Below, piece after piece: positions 1 through 60,169 of a stretch of DNA of 64,000 bases. Position numbers and translations under genes: made by a program. This DNA comes from Blasia pusilla (Eukaryota): positions 5,146,001 to 5,210,000 of the forward strand of contig CM114271.1 of the NCBI GenBank assembly GCA_050084515.1, read 5' to 3'. The notes under the pieces were generated by a model that was not told the DNA's origin, did not search any database, and saw only the letters and a list, made by a program, of their open reading frames with translations. The first letter of the stretch is position 1. Each line of letters starts with the position of its first letter.

Positions 1-290
1 CCTTGACCTCCTACATCAGGTCAAGAGCCAAGGAGGTGACTTGGGAGAATAGGTTACCATGGAGAGAGCTTGGGAGAGGAGAGGGGTATACCTCAAGGAG
101 AGAGAGCTTGAGAGCTCATTCTCTCTTTGTTGAACCTCTTGGCATGAGGCACGGAGCTATGGTACCTTGCCTTGTGAGTGTAACCCAAGCCTCTCATTAG
201 GAGAGTGGGTTTGGTTTGACATGAGAGAGAGTGCACACCTTTGAGAGCTATGGTGTGAGATGGTGGAGAGAGAGATTGGATCTTACTTTA
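1..290 (+). repeat. Terminal repeat A1 of copy 1 (partial)
   Basis: Matches 9667-9957 with about 4 differences by eye; homology ends at ...GGATCTTACTTTA. Confidence 0.92.
87..130 (+). promoter_or_regulatory. Putative LTR core promoter (TATA plus initiator), predicted TSS ~118
   Basis: TATA at 87-90 and Inr-like CTCATTC at 115-121, ~28 nt apart; conserved in copy 2 (48025-48059). Confidence 0.5.
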
Positions 291-1010: not shown

Positions 1011-2279
1011 ATCCATTGTCCACCCTTTGGGTGCCATTGCCGCCATTACGGAGTGGAGGGTCTTCCATGACATTCGTTGATTCTTTGACTTGCGTCGCCA
1101 CCACATACTTTGTTTTGGCCGCCACCGTCATCGCAGTTTCTTCATCAACCAGTGAAGGCAGATGACCTCTGGTTATGGTGTTTGAGTTTTGATTTCATGC
1201 TTCTATGTTGTGATTGGTAGCCGCTCGCGACGATCGAGTATCGTGCCGTGACGCCCGTAGCCGCAACACGCCGCCGATTGCCACGCCGTGCCGCTCGTGG
1301 CCGCACCGCACCATCTCGATCGCGGAGCCGCACCGTCATTGTGGAGCGAGTGTGGGATTATTATTGATTGAGGAGGGTATGCGCCGAGTGCCGCATCCCA
1401 CCATCGAGGGCCGCGTCTTTGTTCGTCGAGCCGCCTGCGTCGCCGCAACGCCGCACCGTTCGCCGGGACCGCACTTTGTCTATCGAGGAGTTTTGAGCGC
1501 ATCGATGGAGGAGGAGTATGACTTGCTGATTGGAGGAGTTGTCTCCACGATCGAGTTGGGGTCGAGATTTGCGATTCTTGCCGAGGAGCGACATCGACAT
1601 GTGTTCAGTTACCCATTCGGTCCTTTACCCTACACGTGTGAGGGATTCGGGATTTATTTGGGGATATTGGGTGTGTGGATCGAGAGCATCATTTATGTAT
1701 GTGGTTTAGGGGACATAGACTTGTGTGGGATGTCCGGAGTTGAGGGTAGGTTGTCGATGAGATGATAGCCTGGTCGATTTGCCGCACCACGCCGCGTGTT
1801 ACCGCACGTTACACGTCTCGGGGAGAGAGAGTGTAGATCGAGTGCCGCATGTTTGGGATGAGTGATTGAGGGATTCCTCACGAGGTTGAGTGATCGGGTG
1901 AGAGGGGCACGAGGGTCATCACGAGTCTATTCGGGACTTTGAGAGGCGAGGTGGTGAACCCGAGAGTAGCTCTAGAGGTTTTACGCGGATTGGCGCGAGG
2001 TTTCGAGGGTCTCCACGTGAGGGACCACCTCGACCTCCTTCTGTGTCATCGTCAGACAAAGGGGAGGGTGTAGAGGACTTTGTGAGCACATCGCCACACA
2101 TTGTGAGTGGTCCTACCAGTTGGGCGTACGAGATGGACGACCGGGGTAGAGGACGCGTAGGTTTTCAGTGCGTGAGGGCACGATTGAGTTACGATTTTAT
2201 AGCAGAGTTTAGGAGCTAGTGCGACTCCCGGCGGGCTAGGAACTCTAGAGAGTTCAACCCATTTACAGCATGGAACGGT

Positions 2280-3170
2280 ATGTTCCAGCATTTAGAGGGG
2301 GCGCCCATGGACGATTACCATGAGTTCTCTCAGAGATATGCATGTGAGATCGAGGCGTGGAGGCTCTACTATGACCCACATTATGTGTCATGGACGGAGC
2401 CGTTCCCAGATGAGGAGGAGGAGTCAGGAGAGGCTACTGCCTCTTCCACTAGTGATGTTTTAGGAGGGGTCACTCGCACGGGAGCAGTTGCACCGTCTAG
2501 TCGGGTTCGTCCCAGGTTCAACCGTGTGGTTGAGTTCTTTGCTGAGTTGAGGGCGAGCTACCAGGGGGTACGGACGGAGAAGTTGCGGAGCATCCACGAC
2601 TTCCAGAGGCGCTCGGGTGAGAGTTTGCGTGAGGCTTACACTCGCTTGCGCCGGTTGATCAACGTCACTCAGGGGGTGACAGAGGCTCAGGCTATCCAGT
2701 CATGGTATGCGATGCTGGACCGGACCCTACGGACACGGGTGCGGGAGGGGGTGCTTCTTATGAACACCTCCCCTACGTTGAGAGATGTTTTTAGGACCAC
2801 CGAGAACATTGAGCGCAACATGGCGGAGGAGAGCGTAGGCACCATGGGTTGGGCGAGAGCGATCCACGATTGTCGCACCACCTATGCAAAGAACGTGGAC
2901 TCCGAGATAGGTCGACTGTGGCACCACGAGCTCAGGGAGGATACCGAGAGGCCGTGCCACAGAGACATGTGCCTTCATATGCGGCTCAGCAGCAGCTGCC
3001 TACTATTATGTGGTGGAGCCCATCATCAGCGCGATTGCACTCGTCAGGGTCATGGACGTGTGCCTCAGCATGGAGGAGGAGATGGTGCTGCACCAGGAGG
3101 TTATCAGTGTGACTATTGTTAGAGGTATGGTCATACACGCGCCAGGTGTTTTAGTTTACATCCTGAGTTA
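2280..3170 (+). pseudogene. gag: Gag (capsid-like region plus CCHC zinc knuckles), frameshifted
   Basis: ORF 2280-3122 with QRRSGESLREAYTRL (retrotransposon gag QxxxES motif); knuckles CGGAHHQRDC and CDYC.RYGHTRARC. Confidence 0.8.
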
Positions 3171-4059
3171 CGTCTAGACCGAGGGCGAGAGAGAGCACCA
3201 GAGCGAGTAGCCGGTCCGGGTGGGCCTAGAGATCGTGCTCTAGGTGGTCCCGTTGGGGGACGAGGAGCTGGAGTTGCCCGACAGGGTGGTGGAGATGCCC
3301 GTGGAGGAGGTAGAGTACCACCACCTAGACGCGCCGAGGGAGATGCCGTACGTGAGGTGGGATGGGTGCTCCGATACAACCGGCTACAGGAGCAGATTGC
3401 CGCTATGGCATTGAGGTTACCCGATGCCGGATCCGTGGCATCGACATCATATGGAGCGCCAGAGATCCTGGAGGATCCTTGATGGATGTCGGGATTGCCA
3501 GATGGAGGCCGCAGGTTGTGACGCGTGGAGCGCCGCAGAGTTGGATCCACTCACGAGGGGAAGCCAATAAGAGACTAGGCTTCCTCAATCTTTCACGTTG
3601 TCGGCGATGAGGACCCCATCGATGAGTCCTCATCAAAGTTCCTGGAGAGTTGGTAATGTTGTTGGTATGCAAGCACGGAGGGCGATGGGATAAGCGAGTG
3701 CGACGACTCCTATTGTTGATGCTCAGGAGGGGCATGTGTCGAGCACGTTGTTGGGGCGCCACCGTTGTGTACCGCACTCCTTTATTTTCTGCCCGATGTT
3801 GTGCGTTGGGAGGTACGCCCGCCGAGGTTTTTTTGGCTGGCCGCTTCACTATGTGAGCGGAGTTGGAGTTCCGCATCACGTTCAAAGGTGATTGCAGAGG
3901 AGGTGATGGACCTGCCCTTGGAGCGGATGCTTGGGCCGTCCACGTCAGATTCATGGCAGTGCGGGTCGCTAGGATGGCGGAGATGCCCGCTAGACCCACG
4001 ATAGAGCGTGCCATGGCTTCTCCTGGTGTTGTGTTGCTTTGGATAACCAAGGAGAGGTC

Positions 4060-4440
4060 TTCTAGTTGGTGAGTCTTGGAGGTAGAGCTTTTTAGTCGCG
4101 TAGCCTTGTTGATTCAGAGCGCAACCCTTGATGTTGGGGAAAGCGTCATTTAGAGGATTGGGCTTGACGCGAGCCGATGTGGAGTGTTGTCCATTTCGGA
4201 TACTGAACATCCTTGGGTGGAGCAAGTACCACACAATATATCACCCGACAGGAGGTCGTGGTGAGGATTCGCCGGGACATCCTGAGATGAGTCCGTAGTG
4301 CGCGCCAAAGCGATAGTGGCGATGGTGAGTCCTCACGATGTCTTGGTTGGTGGAGCGATATTATACCCGATGGGGTTTTCCTGGATTACTTGGGAGAGTC
4401 GGCCTCTGAGACCAGGATGGCGTTAGGTGATGGGCGCCTT
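4060..4440 (+). pseudogene. Aspartic protease domain, degenerate
   Basis: Homologous to LLDLGAQPLMLG in copy 2 and LLDSGAQSLMLG in copy 3; downstream DVLVGG motif. Confidence 0.65.
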
Positions 4441-4809
4441 AGCTCATTACCCGTTCGATTCACAGGTGTAGTGATCGAGCAACGGCCAGGAGAGATGGCG
4501 ACCTTAGCAACATTTATCAGTGCCATCACTTGGCCTAGTGATTTGATTGAGGGACACGTCCATGCAGAGGATACTACCGTTCCTGACATTTCTATGGAGA
4601 GGAGTGTTATGGTAGCTGCATCATTCCGTGGAGGAGAGGTGCCGCTGTGGGGTTCGACTAAGGAGCTTCAACGATTGGCAGATGCGCACGTGCAAACCGC
4701 GTGGAGCGAGCGTTTGCACCAGAGCGTGACGGGTCTGAGGAACCCGAGGTAGCGGGGAGTGCTACGATGACACCCTTGGATACTAGACCCATTGTGTGGT
4801 GTACCCCGG

Positions 4810-5730
4810 AGGAGGGTATTCGAGTGTTAGATCTCTTTGGAGGGATTAGCACGGGTTAGCTGCTGATTTTGCAGGAGGAGTGCGAGTACATCGTGATTAC
4901 TTGTATGTGGAGAGTGATGATGTTTGAGGCGCGTCTCACTACGACATGTGGCGCAATTACGCCCTCGTTTTCCCGACTTATTATGCGTCGCCCGCAATAT
5001 AGGGTACCGAGTTCCCTACCGAGGATATTTTGTTGTTGGGCGCAGGACTTAGAGCGGGTAGGGACCATTGATTTGGTCATTGCCGGTTGGCCATGTCAGG
5101 GCCAATCGAGTGCTGGACGAGGCAGCGGGTTGGCTGACACTCGATCCAGGTTGTTTTGGGAGATGTTGAGGGTCTTACGGCAGTTGCAGGAGCACCAGTC
5201 TCGTTCTCCAGCCTACATTATGGAGAATGTGCCGATCTTAGGAGACTCCAAGTCACGGGTCGTGACGAGTGCTCATCAGGTGCGTGCCTGGATCGGCCCA
5301 GCAGTGTTCTTGGATGCGGCGAGTGTAGGTTCTAGAGCCCATCGCCCGCGTCTATGGTGGACCAACTTGGTGCCCCATGCGGTGTTATGGAGGGCGTATG
5401 CGAGAGTGGAGTGCCCCTCCCCTTTGTTAGTGGATTCCATTCTGGATCCAGGTCGTCGATCACAGGCAGTGAGGCACGATGATCGACCACCGTTGACGTG
5501 GGTCAACAGGGTAAGCGAGGCAGCGACGCGCCTTGCCCACGCGTTTGTGAGTTTTCCCGCTTCCTATGCATACAAGGAGGCCGGTCCTGGCTTGGTTTGG
5601 GATGACCAGGTTGGTGGAGCCCAACGCCGACGAGAGAGAGCAAGCGATGGGATTTCCCATAAGAGTGACGGCAGTACCATCAGTGTCAGAGGCATCACGA
5701 CGCCATATCTTGGGTCAGCGATGGACTGAA
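4810..5730 (+). pseudogene. C5 cytosine DNA methyltransferase domain inside pol
   Basis: Motif I VLDLFGGISTG (~4824-4856), IV DLVIAGWPCQGQS, VI YIMENV, VIII AHRPRLWW, IX EPNADEREQAMGFP, X RRHILGQ; frameshifts between motifs. Confidence 0.9.
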
Positions 5731-6194
5731 TCGCTTGACATGGATCCTCGGCTTGGGAGTGGCGAGCGGCGTCGTATGAGATCGCGACAGATCCGGGCCG
5801 GTTTGCGTTAGTGAGCCCCATGCCTACCGAGACGGTGGTGAGGCAAAGTGGTCGGGGCGAGACCGAGGAGATCTACGCACTGGGGAGATCGGAGAGACAC
5901 CCTTGGACTTCTTGGGATGTTTTGAAGGTACGCAAGGAGATGATAGCCACAACATCGGCGTGGTTTCGGAACGCACGTGGAGGAGATCGAGTTTGCGTTG
6001 GCTGCAGGAGAGCGGCCGAGTGTTGTTGTTCGAGACGGGTTGCACCATAGCAACCACCGATACCGCGCCGGAGAGTCCTACCGTAGTCACGATGGAGACT
6101 TGGGAGCCGGATATGGGCCCTAAGTTGACGGGGAGGAGAGCGGCGCCGAATACATCGATTCCTCGGGAGTTATAGGAGTTGCTTTGCGTTTAGC

Positions 6195-7520
6195 ATGGAG
6201 GATTTGGGTACGCTGAAGGGACTGGGATCCGCATTGAGTTGTCGAGTGATATGCCGATCTTCCGACAACCCTCAGTCTGATGATATGGAGAGGGCTCGAT
6301 TGAGTAGGAGCCAAGACTTGGTCGGAGCAGGACTAGTGGAGATGTCGCATGGGGAGTATGCATCCGCCCCTTTGTCATGCCCGCCAAGAAGGATGTGCAT
6401 GGCAACCGGACGGATAGGCGGATGTGTGGGGATTACCGACCTATCAATTGTGCGCAGGCGAAGTCCGATAGGTATGCCATGCCCACCCCCGAGGAGATCT
6501 TTGATGCGATTGATCACGCAAAGGTCTTCAGTTCATTGGATTTGCGAGTTGGATACCATCAGCTGCCTATCAGATTGGAGGACAGGTAGAAGATGGCATT
6601 TTGGGGCATCGATCCTCACGGGAAGGATTGTTTGTACCAGTGGCGGTTCTTACCATTTGGGTTAAAGAACGCTTGGACTGAGTTTCAGAGGGTCATGGAT
6701 AGGATCTTGGCTGGTCCGGATTTTGCTAGGTGTTATATTGATGACATCGTAGTCTTTAGCGCCACGGTTGAGGAGCACGAGCAACATCTAGAGGAGGTGT
6801 TTCGACGATTGCAATTACATGGGCTGAAGCTACATCCAGGCAAGTGCAAGTTCTTCTACGACCAGATTGAGTACTTGGGTCATACGATATACCCAGGGGG
6901 CCTTGGTGTTCAGCAGACGAAGGTAGAGGCTATCTCACACATTCCACGCCCTCTGAGATGTGAGCCGTGTTCGCGCATTCATGGGATTGGCGAACTTCTA
7001 TCGGCGATACGTTAAGGATTGATTCGATTATGGCGGCCGACCTTGCTCACCAAGGTGGATCACGAGTGGTACTGGGGGGATGAGCAGGAGCGAGCATTTC
7101 GATTGCTCAGGGCGGGTTGGCGTCCGCACCCATCTTGAGGAGACCGATCGGGGCGTCCTTTCGATTGCACCGCAGATTGGAGCATGTTGGGGCTTGAGTG
7201 GTGCTCACCCAAAGATGATGATGAGGGTAGAGAGTTTGTGGTGGCTTACGCTAGCCGCTCGAACAACGCTGCAGAGGCAAAGTGCATTCGTATGAGGGTG
7301 AGTGCTTGGTCGGTGTGGTCATCGCGCATTTCAGGTGTTACTTATTCGGCAACCCCTTTACCATCATCACTAATCATCAACCACTGAAGTGGTTGATGGA
7401 GTCCGACAAGCTTACAGGGAAGCTTGCGAGATGGGCTCTGTTGTTGTAGGAGTATGATTTTCAGGTGGTACATAGACCTGGAACGCTCAACCAGGATGCA
7501 GATGGGTTGAGTCGTAACCC
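6195..7520 (+). pseudogene. pol: Reverse transcriptase and RNase H
   Basis: RMCGDYRPIN, FSSLDLRVGYHQ, LPFGLKNA, YIDDIVVF, KCKF, YLGH; RNase H VVAYASRS and NQDADGLSR; stops and frameshifts. Confidence 0.92.
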
Positions 7521-7749
7521 ATGCCCGAGTCGGCCGAGATCGACCGGAGCTCGATGGCATGGAGAGAGTGATGAGGAGTCGGTGCCAGGATGGCACGCGT
7601 CGGCCTATTTAGGCATGTTGGCTATGGAGAGCGCAGTGTGGAGACCGATGGCGAGGTCTAGTGGAGAGTCTTTGGATCCCGAGGCCGGTGAGGACACGAC
7701 AAGTGGCGAGATATTCATGATGATGGAGTAGTCTTAGAGTACCTTCGTC

Positions 7750-9138
7750 TTGGCGGCCTTTGAAAGCACCATGGATGCTAGAGAGCGGGATCGGATCCTA
7801 CAGCGGGCCAGACGGTTCCGTTGGGAGGGGACACATGTTTTGAGGGTTTGGGAGGATGGCAGAGTACGCGTAGTGCCGCATCCTTTGCAGAGAGCACGAC
7901 TAGTGCAGCATGCCCACGAGGAGTTGGGTCACTTTGGGGTGAAGCGGACGTATAGCTTGCTCGAGATTCGATATTGGTGGCGAGGCATGCGATCGGCGTT
8001 CAGCAGTTTGTTGCCAGGTGCATGGTGTGTGATCGGGTCCGAGCATTGTTCAATGCTCCGACTCCACAGTTGCATCCATTATCGATCATGGGCTTAGGGT
8101 ATAGATGGAGTTTGGATTTTGCAGGACCTTTGCCCTTGACGGAGCGTCACTGTCGTTATGTGTTGGTGATGGTCGAGCACTTCTCAAAGTGGATCGAGTT
8201 GGTTGCATTGCCTGACAAAGCAAGTGAGGGAGTAGGTTATGCCTTCCTTGACAGAGTGCTGAGTCATTATGGCGCACCAGCTGAGGTGTTGACAGACTAG
8301 GGTACCGAGTTTCGCGGTGAGTTCCAAGCCTTGTGTGATCAGGCGCTGATCGACCACCGCACGACTTCGCGAGATCATCCTGAGGCGGATGGATTAGCGG
8401 AGAGAGTTGTGCAAACGGTGAAGAGGGGTTTACGCAAGTATGGCTTGCAGAGATGTCACCTAGGAGATTGGGACCTCCAGTTGCCATGGTTGGCGATGGG
8501 ATATAGATTCAGCAAGCAGGCATCCTTAGCGTCTTTTTCACCGTACTTGCTACTTTATGGCGAGAGCGATTTACTGCGGCCATTTGTCGAGATCTTTGGT
8601 GAGGTCTTGAACCTTGATGACCCAAATGTATGGGTGCGAGCATATTCTCGAGGGTGAGTTATTTTCGAGAGTGATGCCCATGGCGTTCGAGAACTTGGCG
8701 ATTGCACAACATCGGATACGTTGAGGTATGCGACTATTCGAGGTGGTGGTTATCGACCAACTATCCGGAGGTTTCATGAGGGACATTATGTCTATTTGCG
8801 CAGACGGCACCAACGGCGTTGGATGTGATGCAGGCGCACTATCCCGAGAGTGCGTGACATTTTGCCATCGGGTGTTCTCTTGTTGGAGGGACGCGATGGT
8901 ATGGTATGGAAGGACCATGTGCGTAATTGTGCGCCATGTCACCTTCCTAACATTGATGGTACAGTAGATCCGAGCTTAGTAGTAGTTCCCGCAGCTTGCG
9001 TTGTATGTTGTGTGGTTTGCCTGTAGTGCCACGATGCTAGTCTGTGATGGGTGTTCGAGAGGATGGCATATGGCATGTTTGACGCCACCTCTCACTAGGG
9101 TTCCTCAAGGACGATGGATGTGTCCCAGATGTACATAG
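7750..9138 (+). pseudogene. DDE integrase with C-terminal PHD finger
   Basis: HEELGHFG...CMVC (HHCC), WSLDFAGP, VLTD, HPEADGLAER. The 3' end encodes CMLC...CDGC.RGWHMAC...WMCPRC, then TAG at 9136-9138. Confidence 0.9.
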
Positions 9139-9308
9139 AGAAGGTAGTTCTACATTCCGACTTGTGTCTATGACATGGATGACAAGGAGGCGACTAACAA
9201 TGGGGCCACATGAGCACCCGGCCTTCTTGATCTTAGCGTCCGAGAGATGTATGTCATGGTAGGTAGGGATAGATGGCTATCTGGAGTTAGAGGACCTAAC
9301 CACCGGCT

Positions 9309-9317
9309 AGGGGGCGA
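9309..9317 (+). promoter_or_regulatory. Polypurine tract (plus-strand primer)
   Basis: AGGGGGCGA at the start of repeat B1; the equivalent in copy 3 is AGGGGGGGAG (minus strand, ~56612-56621). Confidence 0.65.
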
Positions 9318-9444
9318 TTGGAGATATTTTGGTTCTTCTTGTCTCGTTGTTTGGATGCCATGAGTTAGCATGGGATCATGCGTGTTTGTGTGTGTGTTCG
9401 GTGACAGCGATGTATGTTGTGTAGCGATGTGTATGCGCACGACA
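9317..9444 (+). repeat. Terminal repeat B1 (128 bp)
   Basis: Identical by eye to 9958-10085; ends CACGACA. Confidence 0.93.
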
Positions 9445-9446
9445 GT

Positions 9447-9957
9447 TGTCACGTCTTTGAGGATAGATCGGTGGGATCTAATAGAGCGCCTTCATGAGTA
9501 GTGGAGGACACGCCCGATGAGGTCGAGGGTGACGTCTTTGGCGCTTGGAAACCTGAGATAGCATGTTTCCCCGCGTTCGGCTCATTTGGAGCCATATTGA
9601 GAACTTACTATTTTAGGTAAGTACCATTTTGAGTATATGATCGACTTACTATTTTTGGTAAGTGGCCCTTGACCTCCTACATCAGGTCAAGAGCCAAGGA
9701 GGTGACTTGGGAGAATAGGTTACGATGGAGAGAGCTTGGGAGAGGAGAGGGGTATACCTCAAGGAGAGAGAGCTTGAGAGCTCATTCTCTCTTTGTTGAA
9801 CCTCTTGGCATGAGGCGGCGGAGCTATGGTACCTTGCCTTGTGAGTGTAACCCAAGCCTCTTATTAGGAGAGTGGATTTGGTTTGACATGAGAGAGAGTG
9901 CACACCTTTGAGAGCTATGGTGTGAGATGGTGGAGAGAGAGATTGGATCTTACTTTA
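9447..9957 (+). repeat. Terminal repeat A2 (511 bp)
   Basis: Starts TGTCACG; matches 1-290 and 47720-48229. Confidence 0.92.
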
Positions 9958-10085
9958 ATTGGAGATATTTTGGTTCTTCTTGTCTCGTTGTTTGGATGCC
10001 ATGAGTTAGCATGGGATCATGCGTGTTTGTGTGTGTGTTCGGTGACAGCGATGTATGTTGTGTAGCGATGTGTATGCGCACGACA
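9958..10085 (+). repeat. Terminal repeat B2, the right end of copy 1
   Basis: Duplicate of 9317-9444; ends ...CACGACA. Confidence 0.93.
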
Positions 10086-15996: not shown

Positions 15997-16410
<414 letters not shown>

Positions 16411-17944
16411 AATACATACAACCTCTACTAGATGATTCAATATCTTATTACAACGTCTTTATAGGGAAGCTAATAAAATTTGTTTAATTTTCAATAGGGG
16501 AAGGAGATGGTAAGAGAGGAGGAACACACTGATGGTCTTCTTGTCATGTCTATTGTCACTTCCGTGACCGTTGAAAGCCCATATTCCAACATATTTTGGA
16601 TTGATTTGCTATGTTTGGGACTATTTCCATCGAAAATTATTTTTTGGTGGGCACATAGACTTTGTTTTTGGGACAGTTGGATGGTCACGATGGTCTTTGA
16701 ATGCCCATGGGATCCAACTCTAAGAGAGTAGAGGTATGAAGAGGGTAAAGATTGAGAGTAAGGCGGAAGGGGTGGAAAAATGAGGAAGATGGAGAGAACT
16801 TCCATCTTTTAGCAAGAGAGAGTTAGATCCTCCATAGAAAAACTCATAGAGGAGGTATGGAGCTCAGTGGATCCCTTCCTCTCTATGAAGAGCGAGAGAT
16901 GGATGGGCTTGTTTCCTTACTTGATTCCATACAGTTCTAGAAGGATAGAAAGGGAGTGACCTATAAAATTTAATGGAATATATATCTATTGCCATCAACA
17001 TGAATCTAAAATTCTTCTATCTTGTGAATTTTAGAGTGCACGTATATTGTTTAGCAACGTATATTTGACATGACTCAAAAAACTGCTCACTAGTGGGGCG
17101 TCCTTTTTGCTGTTTCCGAGCCGACTGTGACCTTCACACACTCGACTCTTCTGGCTGGGTTTTCCATCACCCTTCTTATTGAGGCCTCATATGAAAACAA
17201 ACAACGAAAAATATCACCACGAAATTTTGCATTGGTGAAAGAGCACATCAATTGATGTTCACCACAAACGTTTGTGGTTGATGTGCACCACAAACGACGG
17301 GCGACCTGATGCAAGAGGTCACCTCACTGGCCGTAACAGGTGCCAAAGTCGCATTCCAGAGCTGCGATAAGCGGCGTCGCTGAGCGGAAATAGCACTGGT
17401 TAGTTGGATATTAGGTAAGGGAAGCGGTGACGTCACTAGTCTCGTGCGACGTTGTGAACTCGCTGTGGAAACGGAATGCGGAAAGCGGAAACGATTCGCG
17501 GCGACGCGGCATTGGCCCAGGACGTGAGTGAGGCACCGCACGGAGACCTATTCCGGCCTATGGACGTCCGTTTCTTTGCAGGAAAGGCGGCACGTGATAC
17601 GAAGGACGTCATTGGTTTCGGTCACGAACTCGACGGAGGCTCTCCCATCGCTCGTGGACCTGAACACTCGCGCTTTCCTACGGTCGAAAACGCGTCGCGT
17701 GAACCGTCCAATCCTGGCGGCTTTCATGGGACCGACACCTGTCCGTCGCATGAAAGTAACAAACTGAGTACCGGGTGTCCTTTCCCCGCGAACGCGAGAA
17801 GTAAAACTCGTCGGGTGAAACCGAGCGTTTACCGGGTTTCGGGTGAAAGCGTGGGCCTGAAGCCCAGGCGAGAAGGTTGGGGGGTACTATCAGCCCGTGT
17901 TATCGCGAAGGAGCGGTGGGAGCGAATCGGAGAACGGAGGATTT

Positions 17945-37697: not shown

Positions 37698-40129
<2,432 letters not shown>

Positions 40130-45497: not shown

Positions 45498-47719
45498 TGT
45501 TTGACATCCTACACAATCACCAACATAATTGATATTTGTAGAGTTCTAACCAACACGATGAAAAAACCAAGCTAGATCTACTAATAGAAGGTAAGTGTTA
45601 GCAAATGATCTATGATGAAACAATTTTTTTTAGTTTAGACCTCTCCCCATCAAAATGAATGGACTCTAAAAAATTGATATGCTTAACCAATCTATAATCA
45701 CAACTTCTAGATTGGTTAAGCATATCAATTGTTTATCTAGATTTTCATTTATCATACCAGCCATCCCCAACCACAAAATTCAATTCCATTCAAAGAAACA
45801 TGCAAGGTGATCATTTCCAATAATCCTTGAGTTTTTTCAGTTGATTCAAGCAATGGAAATTAAGTACATGTGCATATCTACCAACATCATAACACATCTT
45901 GGCAAGATCCCTAAATTCTTCTTTCTGAACAATATCTAGCTTGAGGCTTTCCACTAGGAGCATATTTTTCCTTGGCTCTTAGATAGTTAAACATCACTTA
46001 AACTTCAAAGTGTTGGTCCTCCACAAGTGGTACTCCTATTACTTAAGAAAAGTTGTGGACGATTATTATGTGTGACTATTCCATGAAAAAAAAACCTACC
46101 TTAGTTTTTAAATGTCTTCAAGATCAAAATTTATCTTGTCCAAAAATTTATTTCCATTTAGATCATTCCTAGAATACAATCTAAAAGAATTCAACCTCAA
46201 CTTACTTTCCTCAACTTTTACTTAAGCACTAGTTGTATGGAAGAATGCCTCAAAATTTGCTATTCGTGCTAGAAACATCTACAAAGCTATTGTGATGGAT
46301 GACTATCTCACCTCCCCATACGCATCTTGGAGCTCTAGACCTATATTTTGTGTCTTATGATGAGCATATGTCTTGACTCCCCATTTGGCCTCTTATGGTT
46401 GTCTTGAAACCCTTCATGTTTTGTGGTGACTCGCCCATCTTGACTACTCACGTGTTCCTTGCTTCTCGCCCTTGACTATAGGCTTGGCCCTAAGGTCTAA
46501 AACCTTGTTTGCCTTGGCTTTGTCCCCTCAAGTGGCTACGCCCCTTTCTCACCTAAGGCTAGTCACAAGACATATGCGCATCTCACCCAACGTTAGTGTC
46601 GTGGCCAGTTCCACCACCCTTCCCAATCTTGCAAGTAGCTAGTCTAAGTTTGAACTTTTGCGGATCACACTCATCATGACTCGATACTTGGATTCCCGCT
46701 AGCATAGGCGTCATAGACTTAGCTATTCACAATGACTATTAATAGGGCAAGTAACAAAAGCTATGTAACTATAAAAAGAACTTCAATGTAACTATAAAAA
46801 GAATGTCCACAATAACCTTGCAACCACAAAACTAAAACTTTTACTTCATGCCCTAGTGCATCGTGTCAAAAAGAGGAGTGTTTGCAAATGAATATCCCCC
46901 ATAATAGTATATATTAACTATTAGAAATTTTAGCCCAACAAAAAACAAATACTTCATAAAATATGGCAGAAAAACCGTCCCATATTAAGATTGCAATTAC
47001 TTAGAAGAAACAAATGGAGGAGAACAATCCTTTATAGCCCTTATGATTCCAAGCTTATTGAAATGGATAACTCTCCCCACCCGTAACAAAGACCTGGGCT
47101 TTGCCAACCTGCATCCAGTCTAGCGCCTTGTCGCCCGTTCTTGTCCCCCATTCTATATCATGCATCAAGCCCGTGCGCGGCCCGCATAATAGGTCTACGC
47201 AGGGCGAGCTTACCATGGGCTAGGGGGGCTCTTCACGGGCCACTCATGGGCTTGATACAAGCCTAGCGAGGGCCTCTTCCATAGTGAATAATTCCTTTAC
47301 AAGGGTATCAAGGTAAAGATCTTGATGGCGAACCATCTTCAACCTTGCAATAAGGATAATGTATGCAATATCTATGAGTGTGTTATTTGGTTAGCTACTT
47401 ATCCAAATTTATCACATCTTCATGTTTTAACATCTCATGCTAAAAAATAAAAAGAACACAAATACTGTACTTTGAATTATTAACCCCAAAATCAAAAACC
47501 CCTCTTCATAGCAAGCCAAGGTGGAATGTCATAGTTTACCAATATAATTCACCACATCAAACATTATTGTCGTATAAGGATGTCGAGAGATACGGAAATC
47601 AATGACAAGACCCAATAGCATGTTACAAGGCTCATCCTACCAAGATGCGGGTATGTGCAATGAGGTTGAAGTTCCTACCACCAATTAGGTGCATGATACC
47701 ATCCATGGACTGATGTCAT

Positions 47720-48229
47720 TGTCACGTCTTTTAGGATAAATTGGTGAGATCTAGTAGAGCGCCTTTGTGAGTAGTGGAGGACACACCCAATAGGTTGAGG
47801 ATGACCTATTGAGGCCCCGAAAAACCTGAGAGAGCATGTTTCCCCTTCGTTTCGTCTCATTTGGAGCCATATTGAGGAACTTACTATTTTAGGTATGTAC
47901 CATTTGAGTATATGACTGACTTTCTATTTTTGGTATGACCCTTGACCTCCTACATAAGGTCAAGAGCCAAGGAGGTGACTTGGGAGAATAGGTTACCATG
48001 GAGAGAGCTTGGGAGAGGGGAGGGTATACCTCAAGGAGAGAGAGCTTGAGAGCTCATTCTCTCTTTGTTGAACCTCTTGGCATGAGGCGGCGGAGCTATG
48101 GTCCCTTGCCTTGTGAGTGTAACCCGAGCCTCTCATTAGGACAGTGGGTTTGGTTTGACATGAGAGAGAGTGCACACCTTTGAGAGCTATGGTATGAGAT
48201 GGTGTAGAGAGAGATTGGATCTTACTTTA
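47720..48229 (+). repeat. Complete 5' repeat A1 of copy 2, with no adjacent B segment
   Basis: Matches 9447-9957; preceded by unrelated DNA and followed directly by internal sequence. Confidence 0.9.
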
Positions 48230-51200
48230 CAAAGAGAGAATGAGAGAGTGAGAGAGCTTCATGGGGGAGCTCGCTGGTCACTTGTTGTTTTTTCAGGTTG
48301 GGGACTGTGTTCCCCATTCAGCGGTTCATGGGAGTGCTCACCGGAGCAAGGGCTACTTTGATTGTTCTTTGCATTTGCCGATTTTTCGTGTGGAAGAGTG
48401 GCGCGCGGAAGCGCTGCCCAATTTTTGAAAGGGATTGAGTATGGGGGCGGGTTGCCCCATGCCAGTGGTCTCGAGAGCACCATGTAGCTTGCTGATTTGT
48501 ATTTTTACAGGTTTTACATTTTCGTTGGGAGAAATCAGCGCGGAAGGGCTGCCAAATTTTGTGTAGGATAAAGAGACATTGGGCTTTACAAAAGTCCCTG
48601 TCAAATTTTACTGGAATTTTCGATTCTAAATTTTTTTCAATGTTGTTGTAGAACGTGAAGCTATGCCCGTTGTGCAACAAACAGTGCGCAATTTGGAGTT
48701 GCGAGCAAAAATTCATGCTCAATCTTGCAAAATTGCAATTGCTAGGCGATTTTTAGGGTTAAATTGTTCAAACCCTAAACCAGCCGCCACGCCGGTGGCG
48801 GCCGTCGCCGTCATAGTCATCGTCACCGGTCCGCCGTCAATGGTCAACCGTCACCATCAACGGTCAACCATCACCGTCAATGGTCAACCGTCCGTTGTCC
48901 ACCCTTTGGTTGCCATTGCCGCCATTACGGAGTGGAGGGTCTTCCACGACGTTCCTTGATTCTCTGACTTGCGTCGCCATCACGTACTGTGTTTTGGCCG
49001 CCACCGTCATCGCAGTTTCGTCATCAACGAGTGATGGCAGATGACCTCCGGTTATGGTGTTTGAGTTTTGATTTCAAGCTGCTATGTTGTGATTGGTAAC
49101 CGCTTGACGACGATAGAGTATCGTGCCGTGACGCTTGTAGCCGCACCGCGCTACTGATTGCCACGACGTGCCGCTCATGGCCACACCGCACTGTCTCGAT
49201 CACGGAGCCGCATCGTCATTGTGGAACAGAGTGTGGGTTTATTGTTGATTGAGGAGGGTATGCCGCCGAGTGCCGCATCCCACCATTCAAGGTCGTGCCG
49301 TTCGTAGCCGTTCCGTGCCGCCTGCAACGCTGCACCGTTCCGCTGGAACCGCACTGTCTATCGAGGAGTTTTGAGCAGCGTCAGTACGGGAGGAGTATGA
49401 CTTGCTGATTGGAGGAGTTATCTCTACGACCGAGTTGGGATCGAGATTTGTAGTTGTTGAGGAGCGACATCGACATGTGTTCAGGTTACCCATTCTGGTC
49501 CTTTACCCTGCACGTGTGAGGGATTCTGGGATTTTGGTAGTTTATTTGGGGATATTGGGTTTGTGGATGCTGAGAGCATCATTTATGTATGTGGTTTAGG
49601 GGACATTGACCTGTGTGGGATGTCCGGAGTGGAGGGTAGGTTTTTGATGAGATGATAACCTGGTCGATTTTCCTCACCACGCTGCGTGTTGCCGCACGTT
49701 ACACGTCTCGGGGAGGGAGAGTGCAGATCGAGTGCCACATGTTTGGGATGAGTGATTGAGGGATTACTCACAAGGTTCAGAGTGATTGGGTGAGAGGGGC
49801 ACGAGGGTCATCACGGAGTCCGTTCGGGACTTTGAGAGGCTAGGTGGTGAACCCGAGAGTAGCTCTAGAGGTTTTGCGTGGAGTGGCGTGAGGTTCCGAG
49901 GATCTCCACGTGAGGGACCACCTCGACCTCCTTGTGTGTCATTGTCAGACAAGGGGGAGGGTGTAGAGGAGTTTGTGAGCACATCGCCACACATTGTGAG
50001 TGGTCCTACGAGTTGGGCGTACAAGATGGACGACCGGGGTAGATGACCGCGTAGGTTTTTAGGTGCAGTAGGCACGATTTCATAGCAGAGTTAAGGAGTT
50101 GGTGCGACTCTCAGCAGGCCAGGAACTCTAGAGAGTTCAACCCGCTTACAGCATGGAATGGTATGTTCCAGCATTTAGAGGGGGCGCCCATGGATGATTA
50201 CCATGAGTTCTCTGAGAGATATGCACGTGAGATCGAGGCGTGGATGCTCTACTTTGACCCACATTATGTGTCATGGACGGAGCCGTTCCCAGATGAGGAG
50301 GAGGAGTCAGGAGAGGCTACTTCCTCTTCCACTAGTGACATTTTAGGAGGGGTCACTCGCACAGGAGCAGTTGCACCGTCTAGTCAGTTCGTCCCATGTT
50401 CAACCATGTGGTTGAGTTCTTTGCTGAGTTGAGGGCGAGGTACCAAGGGGTACGGACGGAGAAGTTGCGGAGCATCCATGACTTCCATAGGTGCCCAGGT
50501 GAGAGTTTGCGTGAGGCTTACACTCGCTTGCGCCGGTTGATCAACGTCACTCAGGGGATAATAGAGGCTCAGGCTATCCAGTCATGGTATGCGATGCTTG
50601 AACGGACCCTGCGGACACGGGTGCGGGAGGGGGTGCTTCTTATGAACACCTTCCCTATATTGAGAGATGTTTTTAGGACCGCCGTGAACATTGAGCGCAA
50701 CGTGGCGGAGGAGAGCGTAGCCACCATGGGTTCTGGATGAGATCAGTCACGATTGTCTGCACCACCTGTGTAGCAACATGGACTCCGAGATAGGTCGACT
50801 GTGGCACCACCAGCTCAGGGAGGATACCGGGAGGCCGTGCCATAGAGACCTACGCCTTCATATGTGGCTCAGCAGCAGCCGCCTACTATTACTTGTTGGT
50901 CATGTGGTGGAGCCCATCATCAGCGCGATTGCACTCGTCAGGGTCATGGACGTGTGCCTCAACATGGAAGAGGAGATGGTACTGCACCAGGAGGTTATCA
51001 GTGTGACTATTGTGAGAGGTATGGTCATACACGCGCCAGGTGTTTTAGTTTACATCCTGAGTTACGTCCGGACCGAGGGCCAGAGAGGGCATCAGAGTGA
51101 GTAGCCAGTCCGGGTGGGTCTAGAGATCGTGCACCACGTGGTCCCGTTGGGGACGAAGAGTTGGAGTTTCCCGATAGGGTGGTGGAGCTGCCTGTGGAGG

Positions 51201-52709
51201 AGGAAGAGTACCACCACCTAGATGCGCCAAGGGAGACGCTGGACGTGAGGCTTGGATGGTTGCTCAGATACAACAGCTACAGGAGCAGATTGCCGCCAGA
51301 TCCGTGGCATCAACATCGTATGGAGCAGCCAGAGATCTTGATGATCCTGGTTGGATGTGCAGGGTTGCCCAGATGGAGGCCGCCGCAGTTCTAGCGCGTG
51401 GAGCAGCCGTAGAGTTGGATCCACAGCGAGGGGAAGCCAGAAAACAAATTAGGCTTCCTCAATCTTTCACGTTGTCTGAAGTGATGACGACCCCATCGAT
51501 GGGTCCTCATCAAAGTTCCTAGAGAGTTGGTGATGTTGTTGGTGTGCAGGCACGGAGGGCGATGGGAGAAACGAGTGTGATGACTCCTATTGTTGATGCT
51601 CAGGAGGGGCATGTGTCGAGCATGTTGTTGGGGGCGGCCACCATTGTGTACCCCACTCCTTTATTTTATGCTTCCAATGTTATGACGTTGGGGGGTACGC
51701 CCGCCAAGGCTTTTCACTTGGCCGCTTCACTATGTGAGTGCGGAGTTGGAGTTCCTACATCACGTTCAAAGGTGATTGCAGAGGAGGTGATGGACCTGCC
51801 CTTGGAGCGGATGCTAAGGCCCTCCACGTCAGATTCATGGCAGGCTGCGGCTGCTAGGATGGCGCAGATACCCGCTAGACCCGCGATAGAGCGTGCCATG
51901 GCTTCTCCTAGTGTTGTGTTGCTGGATAACCAAGAAGAGGTCTTCCAGTTGGTGAGTCCTAGAGGTAGAGCTTTTAGTCTGCAGCTCGTCTTGTTGGATT
52001 TAGGAGCGCAACCCTTGATGTTGGGGAAAGGGTCATTCAGAGTATTGGGCTTGACGAGAGCCGATGTGGAGCGTTGTCCATTCCCGGTACAAACATCGTT
52101 GGGTGGAGCAAGTTACACACAGTATATCACCCGACAAGAGGTCGTGGTGAGGATTCGCCCGGGATATCCTACAGATAAGTCAGTGGTGCGCGCCAAGGCG
52201 ATAGTGACTGATGTAGAGTCCTAGGACGTCTTGGTTGGTGGAGCAATGTTATACCCGATGGGGTTTTCCTTGGATTACTGGGAGGAGTCGGCGTCCTACA
52301 GACCAGGATGGCAGGCAGATGATGGGCGCCTTAGCTCATTACCCCTTTGATTCACAGGTGTAGTAATCGAGCAACGGCCAGGAGAGATGGCGACCTTAGC
52401 AGCATTTAGCAGTGTCATCACTTGGCCTAGTGATTTGATTGAGGGACATGTCCATGCAGAGGATACTCCCGTTCCTGATATTTCTATGGAGAGGAGTGTT
52501 ATGGTAGCTGCATCATTCCGTGGAGGAGAGGTGCTGCTCTGGGGCTCGACTCAGGAGCTTCGACGATTGGCAGATGAGCATTTGCAGACCGCGTGGAGCG
52601 AGGCGTTTGCACTGGAGCGTGACGGGTCTAAGGAACCCGAGGTAGTAGGGAGTGCTACGATGACACCCTTGGATACCACACCCATTGTGTGGTGTACCTC
52701 GGAGGAGGG

Positions 52710-53375
52710 TATTCAAGTGTTAGATCTCTTTGGAGGGATTAGCACCGGGTTAGATGTTCTTTTGCACGCACGAGTGTGAGTACAGCAATACCTACATGTG
52801 GAGAGTGATGATGTTGCGAGGGGTAACTACGACATGTGGCGCAGTTACGCCTATGTTTTCTTGACTTATTGTCTGCATCCGCAATACAAGGATACCAGAG
52901 TTTCCTACCGAGGGATATTTCATTGTTGGGGGCGCAGGACTTAGAGCGGGTAGGGACCATTGATTTGGTCATTGCAGGTTGGCCATGTCAGGGCCAATTG
53001 AGTGCTGGACGAGGCAGCGGGTTGGCTGACACTCGGTCGAGGTTGTTTTGGGAGATTTTGAGGGTCTTACGGCAGTTGCAGGAGCACCAATCTTGTTCTC
53101 CAGCCTACATTCTTGAGAATGTGCCGATCTTAGGAGACTCCTGGTCACGGGTGGTGACGAGTGCTCATCAGGTGCGCGCCTCGATCGGCCAAGCAATGTT
53201 CTTGGATGCGGCGAGTGTAGGTTCTAGAGCCCATCTCCCGCGTCTATGGTGGACCAACTTGGTGCCCCATGCAGTGTTATGGAGGGCGTATGCGAGAGCG
53301 AAGCGTCCCTCCCATTTGTTAGTGGATTCCATTCTGGATCCGAGTCGTCGATCATAGGCAGTGAGGCACGATGAT
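52710..53375 (+). pseudogene. C5 DNA methyltransferase domain (motifs I-VIII) of copy 2
   Basis: VLDLFGGISTG, DLVIAGWPCQGQ, YILENV, AHLPRLWW. Confidence 0.88.
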
Positions 53376-56784: not shown

Positions 56785-58150
56785 CTAAGTACATCGAAGA
56801 CAAACCCACCTTCCAGTAGGAACAACATCCATACGTGGAGTCAAACACATCATGTGCCAACCCCTAGAACACCGATCACACACCAATATACGGGCTGCGT
56901 TACCAACAAACCCACACAACATGCATCTCAAGCTAGCACGTATTATGGCTAAGCTTGGGTCAACAGTACCATCCACATTTGGAAGATGACATGGCGTACA
57001 ATTACGTACATGGTCCTTCCAAACAACTCCATCACGACCCTCCAACATGAGAACTCCAGAAGCTAACACCTCGCGCACTCGTAAAATAGTGCGGCGTGCC
57101 GTCACATCCAACGTTGTCGGTGCAATCTGCTGCAAATAGACATAGTCCCCCACATGGAACCTACGAATCGATGGTCGATAACCTCTACCCCGAATGGTTG
57201 CATACCGCAACGTATCCATGTGTTGAGCAATGGCAAGATTCTCAAAGGCTGTTGGCATAACTTTCCGAAAGAGCTCTGCACGCTGAGAACACAGTCTCAT
57301 CCACATCTCTGGGTCATCAAGGTTCACCACCTCACTAGACTCCCGACGAATTGCTGCTGGCAAGTCTGGATCTCGGCCGTATAACAAAAAATAAGGTGAG
57401 AAGGAAGCCAAGGATGCTTGGCGACTCAACCTATACCCCATGGCTAACCATGGCAACTGAATATCCCAGTCTCCAAGATGCCCCTTCTGTAGGCCATACT
57501 TGCGCAATGCCCTCTTCACCGTCTGAACCACACGCTCAGCCAAACCATCCGCCTCTGGATGATCTCGAGACGTGGTCCGATGATCAATCAACGCCTTGTC
57601 ACACAAGACTGAAACTCACCTTGAAACTCAGACCTTGGTCGGTCAAAGACTTCATTTGGTGCACCAAAATGACTACGCACTCTATCAAGAAACGCATACG
57701 CCGTTCCCTCACTTGCCTTGTCAGGTAATGCCACCAACTCAATCCACTTGGAGAAGTACTCCACCATCACCAACACATATCGATGATATCGTACAGTCAG
57801 CGGTAATGGTCCCGCAAAGTTCACACTCCAACGGTAATCCAACCCCATAATAGGCAAGGGGTGTAATTGTGGTGTAGGGGCATTAAATGATGCCCTCACC
57901 CGGTCACAAACCATACAATATGACACCAACTACTGCACGTGAGTATGCATGCCACGCCACCAATACTGACCAAGGAGTAAGCTATACGTACGCTTTACCC
58001 CAAAATGTCCCAACTCCTCATGGGCATGTCGCACAATGCGCTCTCTCTGAGCCAAATGCGGCACTACTCGTACTCTACCATCCTCCCACACACGTGAATA
58101 TGTGTTCCCTCCAATCGATACCTCTTAGCACGTTGAAGAACACGGTCTCA
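56785..58150 (-). pseudogene. Integrase with C-terminal PHD finger (copy 3)
   Basis: HPEADGLAER; CMLC...CDRC.RGWHMMC...WVCLRC (C4HC3). Confidence 0.9.
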
Positions 58151-58429
58151 CTCCTTGGCACTCACTATGCCTGGCACCCTATTGGTCCGTAGGAACTCCA
58201 ACACCAACGCATCATCATGAATATCATACTGATCCGTACCACCATCTCCAATCTTAGGATCTGAAGGCTGGCCATCTACCTTCTGACTAGAGTAAGATAT
58301 CATGTGGTTCTCCATACTAGAGTCCACCCCTAACCAACATAAAAAGGCGGATGCATGCCAACCTGGCACCATCTCCTCATCAACCTCGCCATGCCATCTA
58401 GCCCCAGTTGTATCCTCTTGGCTAGTACA

Positions 58430-59800
58430 TGGGTTCCGACTCAACCCATCAATATCAAGGTTGGCAACTCTAGGTCTATGTACCACCTGGAAGTCATACT
58501 CCTGTAAGATAAGAGCCCACCGTGCAAGCTACCCTGTAAGCTTGTCAGACTCCATTAACCACTTGAGCGGCCGGTAATCAGTAACAAGGGTAAACTGTGT
58601 GCCAAACACGTAACACCTAAAGTGTGCCACAACCCACACTACTGCCAAGCACTCTCCCTCATATGAACTATAGCGACTCATTTGCATTATTCGAACGACT
58701 TGCATAGGCCACCACAAACTCCATGTGCTCATCATCATGTTGTGTCAATACCTGTCCAAGTCCCAACCTACTCCAATCAGTGTGTAACTGAAATGGGCGC
58801 CCTCTGATAGGTCTCCTCAAGATAGGCGCCGCCACCAATTGGGCATTAAGCTCCACAAAAGCTCTCTCCTGATCATCTCCCCAGTGCCACTCTTGATCTG
58901 ATTTCAGAAATTGGTTCAAAGGCTTTGCCATAGCACTAAATCCCTTCACATACCTCCGATAGTAGTTCGCCAATCCCATGAATGCTCGAACTCTACTCAC
59001 ATCTACCGGATGCAGAATAAGTGCAATAGCCTCCACCTTTGCTTCCTAAACTCCCAAACCACCTGGATAGATCACATGACCCAAGTACTCAACATCCTCA
59101 TGGAAGAACTTACACTTTCTTGGATGCAAACGTAGACCATGAGCTTTCAACCGCTCAAACACCATCTGCAAATGTATCGATGCTCCTCCACCCGTATTAC
59201 TGAACACCAAGATATCATCAATGTAACACCGAACAAAATCCAACCCTGCTAGGATCCTGTCCATCACTCTCTGAAACTGGGCAAGTGCATTCTTCAACCC
59301 AAAGGGTAAGAATTTCCACTGGTACAAACAATCCTTGCCATGAGAGTTGACATCCCAAAATGATGTCTTGGCCTTGTCACTCTCCCGAATTGGCAATTGA
59401 TGGTATCCTACCCGAAGATCCAAAGTACTGAAAATCTTTGTCTATCCCACCACATCAAAGATTTCCTCAAGTGTAGGCATGGCATACCTATCGGCCTTGG
59501 TTTGCCGATTGATAGGACGGTAATCTCCACACATCCGCCTATCCGTGTAGTTGCCATGCATATCCTTTTTAGCAGGCATGACAATGGGTGATGCATACTC
59601 TCCATGCGACAACTCCACTAATCCAGCCTCCAAAAGGTCCAACGTCCTACTCTGAATCAGGTCCCTCTCCATATCACTACATCGGTAGGGACGATGGAAG
59701 ATTGGCGTATCACTAGCCAAATCAATTCGTATATCGGGTCCAACTAGAGCACCCAAATCCTTCATGCTAAAGGCAAAAAAACTCCTATAAGCACGTAGGA
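58430..59800 (-). pseudogene. pol: RT and RNase H (copy 3)
   Basis: RMCGDYRPIN, LPFGLKNA, YIDDILVF, LHTDWS, YEGECLAV. Confidence 0.9.
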
Positions 59801-60169
59801 ACTGTGTCAAGCGTCGTTTCTCACCTCCCGTAAGCTTGGGCCCAAGTAATGGCTCCCAAGTCTCCTCCAGTGGCACACTAGAGGGAGAGGGCGATGCCAT
59901 TGGTGCTCATAACCCCCTCACAAGATGGTACACCCTTAGCTACACCATCATCTCGAGCAAATAACTCCTCCACCAAAGATGAGCAACCAACTCCACATGC
60001 CCAGCCATTACATCCCATTTACTCCAAGGATGCAAAATACTACTCTCCTCGCCCCCAACCGATGCCTCTACCGTCCCGGTAGCCATCGAGCTCATTACAA
60101 GGGGTGGAAGACCCACATACATAGTTCGAAGTTGACGCTGCTCGGCCATACCAAGACTCAAAATCCAAG

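Follow-up and report, generated by a model that had tools for sequence, protein, structure and literature searches.

Cytosine methylation is the main weapon of a host against its transposons, and a de novo methyltransferase encoded by a transposon is therefore a paradox. The nearest described systems are those of de Mendoza et al. (2018), cited throughout from the accessible part of their paper (PMC5890265). In the charophyte Klebsormidium nitens, KnitGypsy-Dnmt3 is a Gypsy-type retrotransposon with a DNMT3-related, non-rearranged DNA methyltransferase domain (DNMT) in its Pol open reading frame (ORF); the domain produced no methylation in yeast, an outcome called inconclusive by the authors because human DNMT3B failed likewise. 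For SymbioDIRS-Dnmt3 of Symbiodinium, de novo CG methylation has been demonstrated in yeast (PMC5890265). Since 2018 the streptophyte case has rested on that one charophyte, with an enzyme inactive in the yeast test (PMC5890265), and later papers, in their accessible portions, refer to 'streptophytes (Gypsy-DNMT3)' and name no land plants (10.64898/2026.05.21.726589; PMC12344493). The present analysis concerns a window of 64,000 nucleotides from the Blasia pusilla assembly GCA_050084515.1 (contig CM114271.1, positions 5,146,001 to 5,210,000), in which three copies of a retrotransposon with such a domain are found. The most far-reaching reading, to which we assign a probability of roughly 0.45, is that they represent a still-transcribed Gypsy lineage distributed across liverworts, Sphagnum and probably other bryophytes, which combines a DNMT3-like writer with a PHD reader and retains an internal copy of its joined termini, so that its DDE integrase may use a circle-like or junction-templated intermediate, and that the DNMT moved once within the Pol of a green-lineage family of at least 492 clusters.

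On the basis of identity and anatomy, the window very probably contains three decayed copies, in two subfamilies, of a single Ty3/gypsy-type retrotransposon lineage. The order of domains is gag, aspartic protease, DNMT3-like C5 methyltransferase, reverse transcriptase (RT), RNase H, DDE integrase and PHD finger. The Ty3/gypsy gene order, gag-protease-RT-RNase H-DDE integrase, was recovered by Pfam and tblastn in the copies, and is found also in an intact relative (P0300). Elements of the DIRS type carry a tyrosine recombinase instead of a DDE integrase; here Integrase_H2C2 and rve domains were found, and the Pfam scans gave no recombinase match in the scanned ORFs. The termini depart from the two identical flanking long terminal repeats (LTRs) of Ty3/gypsy elements, being arranged as A ... 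B-A-B, with a 5' end that consists of A only in copies 1 and 2.

Copy 1 is located on the plus strand at the left edge of the window. Its gag (2193..3224) aligns by tblastn with residues 25-362 of the Marchantia proteins P0126/P0130, the PF03732 match (E value 0.0058) being under the cut-off, and is followed by remnants of the aspartic protease (4119..4414), which were found by tblastn with the Pfam-detected protease stretch of P0151. The DNMT3-like C5 methyltransferase occupies 4755..5718, as defined by PF00145, by motifs and by tblastn to P0126. Downstream are a fragmented RT and RNase H (6101..7845; tblastn to P0129 residues 696-1190), with RVT_1 at 6590-7012 (E value 9.7e-22) and a weak RNase H match in Pfam, and a DDE integrase comprising the zinc-binding and core parts (7738..8957; tblastn to P0158 residues 1100-1495), for which the Integrase_H2C2 match has an E value of 5.2e-11 and the rve match an E value of 9.6e-07, its 29.4 bits lying below the cut-off of 32.6. 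The PHD finger, 3' of the integrase (9034..9135), has 58% identity by tblastn to the PHD stretch of P0158 (residues 1523-1558).

Copy 2 (47719..53375, plus strand) belongs to the same subfamily, with 88% DNA identity to positions 1-5483 of copy 1, that is, across 5.5 kb. It comprises repeat A (47719-48229), leader, gag, a protease identified by tblastn (51913-52305) in which DLG replaces DSG, and the DNMT (52648-53438; PF00145 and tblastn), and is truncated before the RT. Copy 3 is on the minus strand and shares 73-76% DNA identity with copies 1 and 2, so that the two divergent subfamilies announced in the earlier note are borne out. Its gag and the stretch leading to the protease (61417..63548) have 60-77% identity by tblastn to residues 1-776 of P0126, and the 5' leader and repeat extend past the end of the window. 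The aspartic protease, with the sequence LLDSGAQ, is at 61528..61908 (39% identity, E value 4e-24, to the protease stretch of P0151 in tblastn), and the DNMT3-like domain with its flanks, recognized by Pfam and motifs, at 59943..61253 in one frame with two in-frame stops; the DNMT proper, at 61154-60201, has 75% identity to Marchantia P0126 over 318 residues. RT and RNase H follow at 58097..59858 (RVT_1 E value 1.3e-26; RT_RNaseH_2 E value 1.7e-16; 70% identity to P0129), then the integrase and PHD finger at 56791..58115. There, the tblastn match to P0158 spans the integrase, rve reaches only 22.1 bits (E value 1.9e-4) against its cut-off of 32.6, and the PHD finger, at about 56791-56925, scores 35.1 bits (PF00628, E value 1.3e-08) against a cut-off of 24. 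In neither the window copies nor Marchantia P0126 did Pfam detect a protease; it was seen only by way of the Pfam-positive stretch of P0151. The placement of the DNMT between protease and RT, as originally claimed for every copy, holds for copies 1 and 3; copy 2 has the protease and then the DNMT, and ends before an RT. Stops, frameshifts or truncation affect all three copies, and their open frames extend to at most 300 aa (copy 1) and 357 aa (copy 3), versus a polyprotein of 2188 aa in P0300. As to composition, G strongly outnumbers C on the coding strand of copies 1-3 (GC skew +0.19 to +0.24 in the sense orientation), and their CpG depletion is mild (observed/expected 0.60-0.89).

The identity of the methyltransferase domain was examined with the PF00145 profile hidden Markov model, the curated cut-off of which is 22 bits. 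All three copies exceed it: copy 1 with the ORF at 4860-5729 (P0001, 289 codons; E value 4.8e-12, 46.4 bits), copy 2 with the stretch at 52827-53357 (P0005; E value 3e-10, 40.5 bits), and copy 3 with the stretch at 59943-61253 (437 codons, the two stops read as X; E value 6.4e-07, 29.5 bits). The motif names used here (I, FxGxG; IV, PCQ; VI, ENV; VIII; X) are those customary for the C5-methyltransferase family. In copy 1, motif I (LDLFGGISTG, within ...VLDLFGGISTG) is at 4833 and is immediately followed by a TAG stop; PCQ (5091), ENV (5223) and HRPRLWW (5340) share its frame, and motif X (NADERE) at 5626 is in another, which indicates a frameshift ahead of motif X. In copy 2, motif I (52726) is in a frame different from that of PCQ (52983) and ENV (53115), and motif VIII is altered to HLPRLWW. 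Homology between copies 2 and 1 stops at 53375 and the protein match at 53438, so that motifs IX and X are absent from copy 2. Copy 3 has motifs I, IV, VI, VIII, an IX-like motif and X, all in its single frame of 437 codons. The ordered series of motifs which had been reported for three copies is thus present in copies 1 and 3 and lacks IX and X in copy 2, while PCQ and ENV, said to be retained throughout, were indeed found in all three. In an alignment (A1) of 17 members of the family, no variation occurs in motif X, in the E and N of ENV, in the P of PCQ, or at the F and second G of FxGxG; at least 90% of rows retain the catalytic C, the Q and the V of ENV, the exceptions being one row each with PYQ, PCY and ENI. 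As far as these sequences indicate, the domain is conserved across the family with its catalytic motifs kept.

With respect to its class, both the sequence profile and the predicted fold place the domain nearest to DNMT3, which is a best-match argument and not a phylogeny. When the A1 profile was compared with all PDB chains, DNMT3A/3B/3C gave an E value of 1e-20 (77 bits), plant DRM 7e-11, HaeIII 3e-07, and HhaI and DNMT2 about 2e-06; the 57 matches included neither a DNMT1 nor a chromomethylase chain. An AlphaFold (AF2) model of P0008, the closest intact relative (78% identical to copy 3), had a pTM of 0.72, with a confident catalytic half and a poorly predicted target-recognition part. Used as a Foldseek query, it returned DNMT3A/3B/3C chains in all of the best 50 ranks (best E value 6e-15, 20-22% identity). 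Motifs I, IV, VI, VIII and X occur in the ordinary order, as in the host enzymes DNMT3A/3B/3C; unlike these, the element domain, at about 20-22% identity to them, has no adjoining PWWP or ADD and sits inside a retrotransposon polyprotein. A bacterial or phage origin of the domain was also considered and is unsupported, the DNMT3 scores of the A1 profile in the PDB search far exceeding those of bacterial enzymes.

Selection on the domain was assessed from Nei-Gojobori distances with bootstrap limits, the copies being mapped codon by codon onto intact relatives. Between subfamilies (copy 1 or 2 versus copy 3), the ratio of nonsynonymous to synonymous divergence (dN/dS) of the DNMT is 0.18-0.27 (238-289 codons; bootstrap 95% limits within 0.11-0.38), as compared, for copy 1 versus copy 3, with 0.18 for RT-RNase H (483 codons) and 0.12 for integrase-PHD (399 codons), all of these ratios being rough because dS between subfamilies is saturated (about 1.6-2.2); for gag and the protease region no dS value could be obtained. 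Between copies 1 and 2, the DNMT ratio is 0.66-0.74 (226-247 codons), that expected for mostly neutral decay. Between subfamilies, therefore, the DNMT is under purifying selection similar to that on RT and is conserved like the replication enzymes, so that the check for neutral evolution across copies proposed with the original observation came out in favour of constraint.

It could be that the conserved domain does not methylate DNA, acting rather as a DNA- or RNA-binding module or as an RNA methyltransferase, or that it needs host partners. This we hold to be unlikely, while giving it more weight than the other alternatives treated below. In its favour, the Dnmt3 domain of KnitGypsy gave no de novo methylation in yeast, and RNA methylation was raised by the same authors for another element (PMC5890265, accessible part). 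Nevertheless, most catalytic and cofactor positions are invariant across the 17 members of A1, the dN/dS of the DNMT is as low as that of RT, and the yeast test had been inconclusive to its authors for the reason given above. Methylation of the element's own DNA is retained here, tentatively, as the possible function. In intact relatives the domain would be an active de novo methyltransferase, made as a part of Pol and either released or acting within it, and, in line with the proposal of de Mendoza et al., it would mark the element's DNA just after synthesis or just after insertion. The integrase PHD finger might in turn read histone H3 tails and steer the insertion site, in the manner of the chromodomains of chromoviruses. 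Chromoviruses and PHD-bearing Gypsy elements, e.g., Gypsy-7a_cRei of Chlamydomonas, likewise have a chromatin-reader domain on Pol, presumably guiding integration, but, according to the part of the source available, carry no methyltransferase (10.1101/2022.06.16.496473).

Intact relatives of the copies were identified in protein collections. By Pfam, the intact polyprotein P0300 contains zf-CCHC, DNMT, RT, RNase H and integrase, and P0129, P0151 and P0155 agree with it. These proteins bear on the idea that the methyltransferase is a host gene broken by insertions, or a one-off chimera, for which there is nothing to be said beyond the general ability of decayed repeats to mimic fusions. The identical placement in three copies, the uninterrupted P0300 with its DNMT between the gag zinc knuckle and RT, and the 492 clusters (at 50% identity) matching at E values of 1e-30 or below in an exhaustive profile search (2699 at 1e-10 or below) all oppose it; it is refuted by the intact single-ORF relatives, and we consider it extremely improbable. 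With the same site occupied in three copies and in intact relatives, and with purifying selection across subfamilies, the domain is, as the earlier note had maintained, a stable component of Pol and not a one-off capture.

The organisms in which the family occurs were surveyed by two sequence searches. A word-indexed search of proteins of similar length found 118, of which 20 carried organism names (10 Marchantia polymorpha, 5 Calypogeia fissa, 4 Sphagnum and 1 Riccia sorocarpa), while a search of longer proteins found 48, with 15 named (14 Marchantia and 1 Sphagnum fallax); the organism-named relatives were thus bryophyte in 35 of 35 cases. Transposon proteins are often masked from genome annotations, and for this reason the absence of vascular plants among the named relatives, even though their proteomes are in the collection, is weak evidence. 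Look-ups of 30 proteins from the clusters added a 'pol' of Scenedesmus (a chlorophyte), Closterium (a zygnematophycean charophyte), further Sphagnum, and Nothoceros. No protein by the name of Klebsormidium was returned by the relative searches or by these 30 look-ups.

Two layouts of Pol were recognized among these proteins. In type I, the DNMT precedes RT (the window copies and Marchantia P0129, P0151, P0155 and P0300); in type II, the order is RT-RNase H-DNMT-integrase-PHD (P0158, P0308 and P0367). The last of these, the 'pol' of Scenedesmus sp. PABB004, resembles the window element in having a homologous DNMT (E value 1e-78 to the family profile), a Gypsy RT, RNase H and integrase, and a C-terminal PHD finger, and differs from it in that its DNMT lies between RNase H and integrase and falls in a separate clade of the DNMT tree. 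This tree (130 rows; quick IQ-TREE search with SH-like approximate likelihood ratio (SH-aLRT) support only) was built from rows drawn from 193 full-domain hits after removal of unnamed sequences at least 60% identical to a kept one, and omits partial-domain hits, the Sphagnum and Riccia proteins with organism names among them. In it, the window copies cluster with six Marchantia and two Calypogeia rows (SH-aLRT 98), nested in a 34-row clade (SH-aLRT 100) that also includes the Closterium protein P0334. All seven classified type I rows are in this clade and all 73 type II rows, which form the much larger sister group, are among the other 96, the split having an SH-aLRT of 100. On the 130-row tree, of which 50 rows have no layout class, the position of the DNMT changed once. 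Whether types I and II constitute one transposon lineage is indicated, weakly, by pairwise RT identity: that between the window copies and type II P0158 is 34-39%, and that between the family members P0129/P0136 and another Gypsy element of the window, described below, is 29-31%.

Comparison with the described systems places the element, in all likelihood, in the streptophyte Gypsy-DNMT3 kind first described in K. nitens, which it extends to land plants; de Mendoza et al. (2018), with KnitGypsy-Dnmt3, is indeed the closest known case, as had been surmised from the DNA. Like KnitGypsy-Dnmt3, the element has the Gypsy domain set with a DNMT3-related domain inside Pol, DIRS-like repeats in the order A-coding-B-A-B (complete in copy 1 and partial in the metagenome loci L007, L026, L041 and L030), and a DNMT under purifying selection (Ka/Ks below 0.2 there, dN/dS 0.18-0.27 here). 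It is unlike it in its host, which is not K. nitens, the named relatives being from liverworts and Sphagnum (PMC5890265, as accessible). It resembles SymbioDIRS-Dnmt3 in that Pol contains a DNMT3-like domain, the repeats are split and two domain orders coexist within one family; in contrast to that element, a DIRS with a tyrosine recombinase, it has a DDE integrase, a gag with zinc knuckle and an aspartic protease (same source). A further alternative is that the DNMT entered the bryophyte elements separately from its acquisition by the Klebsormidium element. The portion of de Mendoza et al. consulted here documents that retrotransposons captured DNMT3 independently more than once (PMC5890265), the kinship with Klebsormidium is known from shared features and not from direct comparison, and the domain occupies two different Pol positions within the family. 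Convergence would, however, have to produce three unusual shared features (Gypsy composition, a DNMT3-related domain in Pol, and DIRS-like split repeats), and it sits poorly with the charophyte Closterium protein inside the bryophyte DNMT clade and with the single change of domain position on the tree; it is judged improbable.

As regards novelty, no account of these elements from bryophytes or any other land plants was encountered in the open full-text literature, a scope which does not extend to subscription journals and supplements, nor in the accessible portions of PMC9033089, PMC11982613, PMC10952607 and 10.1101/2021.11.30.470311. Bryophyte sequences may already be included in the trees supplied as supplements to PMC5890265 and PMC12344493. 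The suggestion that a land-plant occurrence is undescribed is therefore sustained in part: the open literature is silent and the domain is present in named Marchantia, Calypogeia, Riccia and Sphagnum, but the element is of the same kind as the charophyte one. What may be new in itself is the occurrence in land plants, Marchantia among them, as well as the PHD finger and the existence of two layouts separated by a single switch.

The terminal repeats of copy 1 form a layout of split direct repeats, A-coding-B-A-B. Repeat A1 (1..290), the start of which is outside the window, is 98.3% identical to 9667-9957 and is directly adjoined by internal sequence, not by B; in copy 2 as well, the 5' A meets the internal sequence with no B between. 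At the other end are a purine-rich tract, CTAGGGGGCG (9307..9316), directly upstream of B1 (9317..9444, 128 nt), then A2 (9446..9957), and finally B2 (9958..10085), which is identical to B1 over its 128 nt and forms the 3' end of the element, ending ...ACA. The full length of A, 9446-9957, was defined against the A of copy 2 (47719-48229), with which it matches at 91%. The outer ends are TG... at the start of A and ...CA at the end of B, and the internal B1|A2 junction (...CGACA G TTGTCACG...) is partly palindromic and equals the right end of the element joined to its left end. The tract CTAGGGGGCG may serve as a polypurine tract. A typical tRNA primer-binding site was not evident after A1 on reading of the sequence, no dedicated search having been made. 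A fragment of another copy, consisting of the end of A and B, stands isolated at 16099..16411 on the plus strand (77% identity to 9764-10086).

Similar arrangements were looked for in metagenome loci, of which 12 long ones out of 53 were examined. In L007, L026 and L041, a B...B pair about 453 bp apart is accompanied by the CTAGGGGGCG tract upstream of B1, by an end in ...GCACGACA as in the window, and by an A that begins, again as in the window, with TGTCATG. In L030 an A1/A2 pair is present, and no B copy was seen in the tail. A full A-B-A-B was seen in none of the 12, their contigs being too short or decayed, and ORFs of more than 1000 aa only in L035 and L047. Ordinary LTRs with a chance duplication of B were considered as an explanation and are ruled out by the A-only 5' end in copies 1 and 2 and by the recurring B...B in three unrelated loci. 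Judged from these repeats, the genomic layout looks like a circular permutation of the two-LTR form, the LTR being B+A. An intermediate with joined ends would use the B-A junction as template or recognition site, and the repeat arrangement could stem from replication on a circle-like template of joined ends. The repeats of copy 1 are nearly identical (A 98.3%, B 100%), even though its longest ORF is 300 aa as compared with the more than 2100 aa of an intact polyprotein. Either copies that were defective beforehand were mobilised in trans, or the repeats were homogenised.

Transcription was examined in three RNA-seq runs bearing the same species label as the best-matching DNA data set, which placed 683, 668 and 733 reads on copy 1. 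The reads occupy all 30 bins of the copy, the DNMT stretch included. A first mate on the minus strand corresponds to coding-sense RNA in most stranded libraries, and the first mates here are mostly on that strand. The element family is therefore transcribed at a low level and in the sense orientation. Between 18 and 21 reads per run are at least 99% alike to copy 1; the remaining ones are 95-99% alike, about half of them fitting only partly. So few near-identical reads imply that the transcripts come mainly from sister copies.

Several results limit the identification of the element as a member of the streptophyte Gypsy-DNMT3 kind. Every copy in the window is a pseudogene, and any enzymatic role is for that reason confined to intact relatives. 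The reads per run that match copy 1 closely are few, and saturation makes the dN/dS ratios rough. The complete A-B-A-B has been seen in one element only, copy 2 being truncated and copy 3 running past the window. The kinship with KnitGypsy-Dnmt3 is drawn from shared features and not from an alignment or tree, and the term DNMT3-like from best matches and not from a tree including canonical DNMT1, CMT, DRM, DNMT3 and bacterial sequences; moreover, a protein-atlas search scored two phage-rich C5-methylase clusters equal to one streptophyte cluster. Finally, in the sole published activity test of a streptophyte domain, as reported in the available text of PMC5890265, no yeast methylation was seen. 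The PHD finger, the one change of DNMT position, and the conserved purine tract with the B-A junction together suggest an element equipped to interact with chromatin, the replication of which may pass through a joined-ends form. Should the far-reaching reading given at the outset be correct, what a transposon gains by methylating DNA would become testable in a genetically tractable land plant, the family being abundant among the annotated proteins of Marchantia polymorpha. Occurrence in bryophytes brings the question to organisms with transformation, methylomes and mutants, with dozens of annotated Marchantia proteins and with sense transcripts in the window's own species.

The remainder of the window contains one host gene and several other repeats. 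A beta-amylase gene (PF01373, two long exons) is located at 37698-40132 on the minus strand. Its best identities are 74% with a transcript of the hornwort Nothoceros, 72% with liverworts, 70% with Physcomitrium and a lycophyte, 67% with Mesotaenium and 62% with Closterium. In an exon tree it falls outside the strongly supported liverwort, moss and zygnematophyte clades, its placement among these and the hornwort being unsettled, with a long end branch of 0.56. Taken alone, the gene indicates a non-vascular streptophyte, most probably a bryophyte, that is distinct from the sequenced species of Klebsormidium, Marchantia and Sphagnum and has a proteome outside the searched collection. A charophyte alga as host, for which the position relative to the two zygnematophycean algae in the tree leaves room, is judged improbable in view of the order of these identities and of the grouping of the element copies with Marchantia and Calypogeia (SH-aLRT 98); irrespective of the host, the domain is present in named liverwort and Sphagnum proteins. 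The DNMT domain of the element is 72-78% identical among the window host, Marchantia, Calypogeia and Sphagnum, and the host beta-amylase is about equally identical; such a similarity would mean either an unusually slow divergence for a transposon or transfer between bryophytes.

The other Gypsy element of the window has no DNMT and comprises a zinc knuckle, aspartic protease and RT-RNase H (11860-13920, minus strand). A second integrase zinc-binding domain (E value 1e-17) at 55721-56362 on the minus strand, just downstream of the PHD finger of copy 3, probably belongs to another element that truncates this copy. An unclassified repeat of about 1 kb is present in three copies with 75-90% identity (10082-11133, 32827-33890 and 53908-54982), two of them directly downstream of copies 1 and 2. 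A pair of inverted 0.9-kb repeats (14979-15897 and 44197-45124), situated about 29 kb apart, is 76% identical. Lastly, positions 26000-36000 constitute an AT-rich block with a GC content of 0.35 and a CpG observed/expected ratio of 0.37, far under that of the genes and elements.

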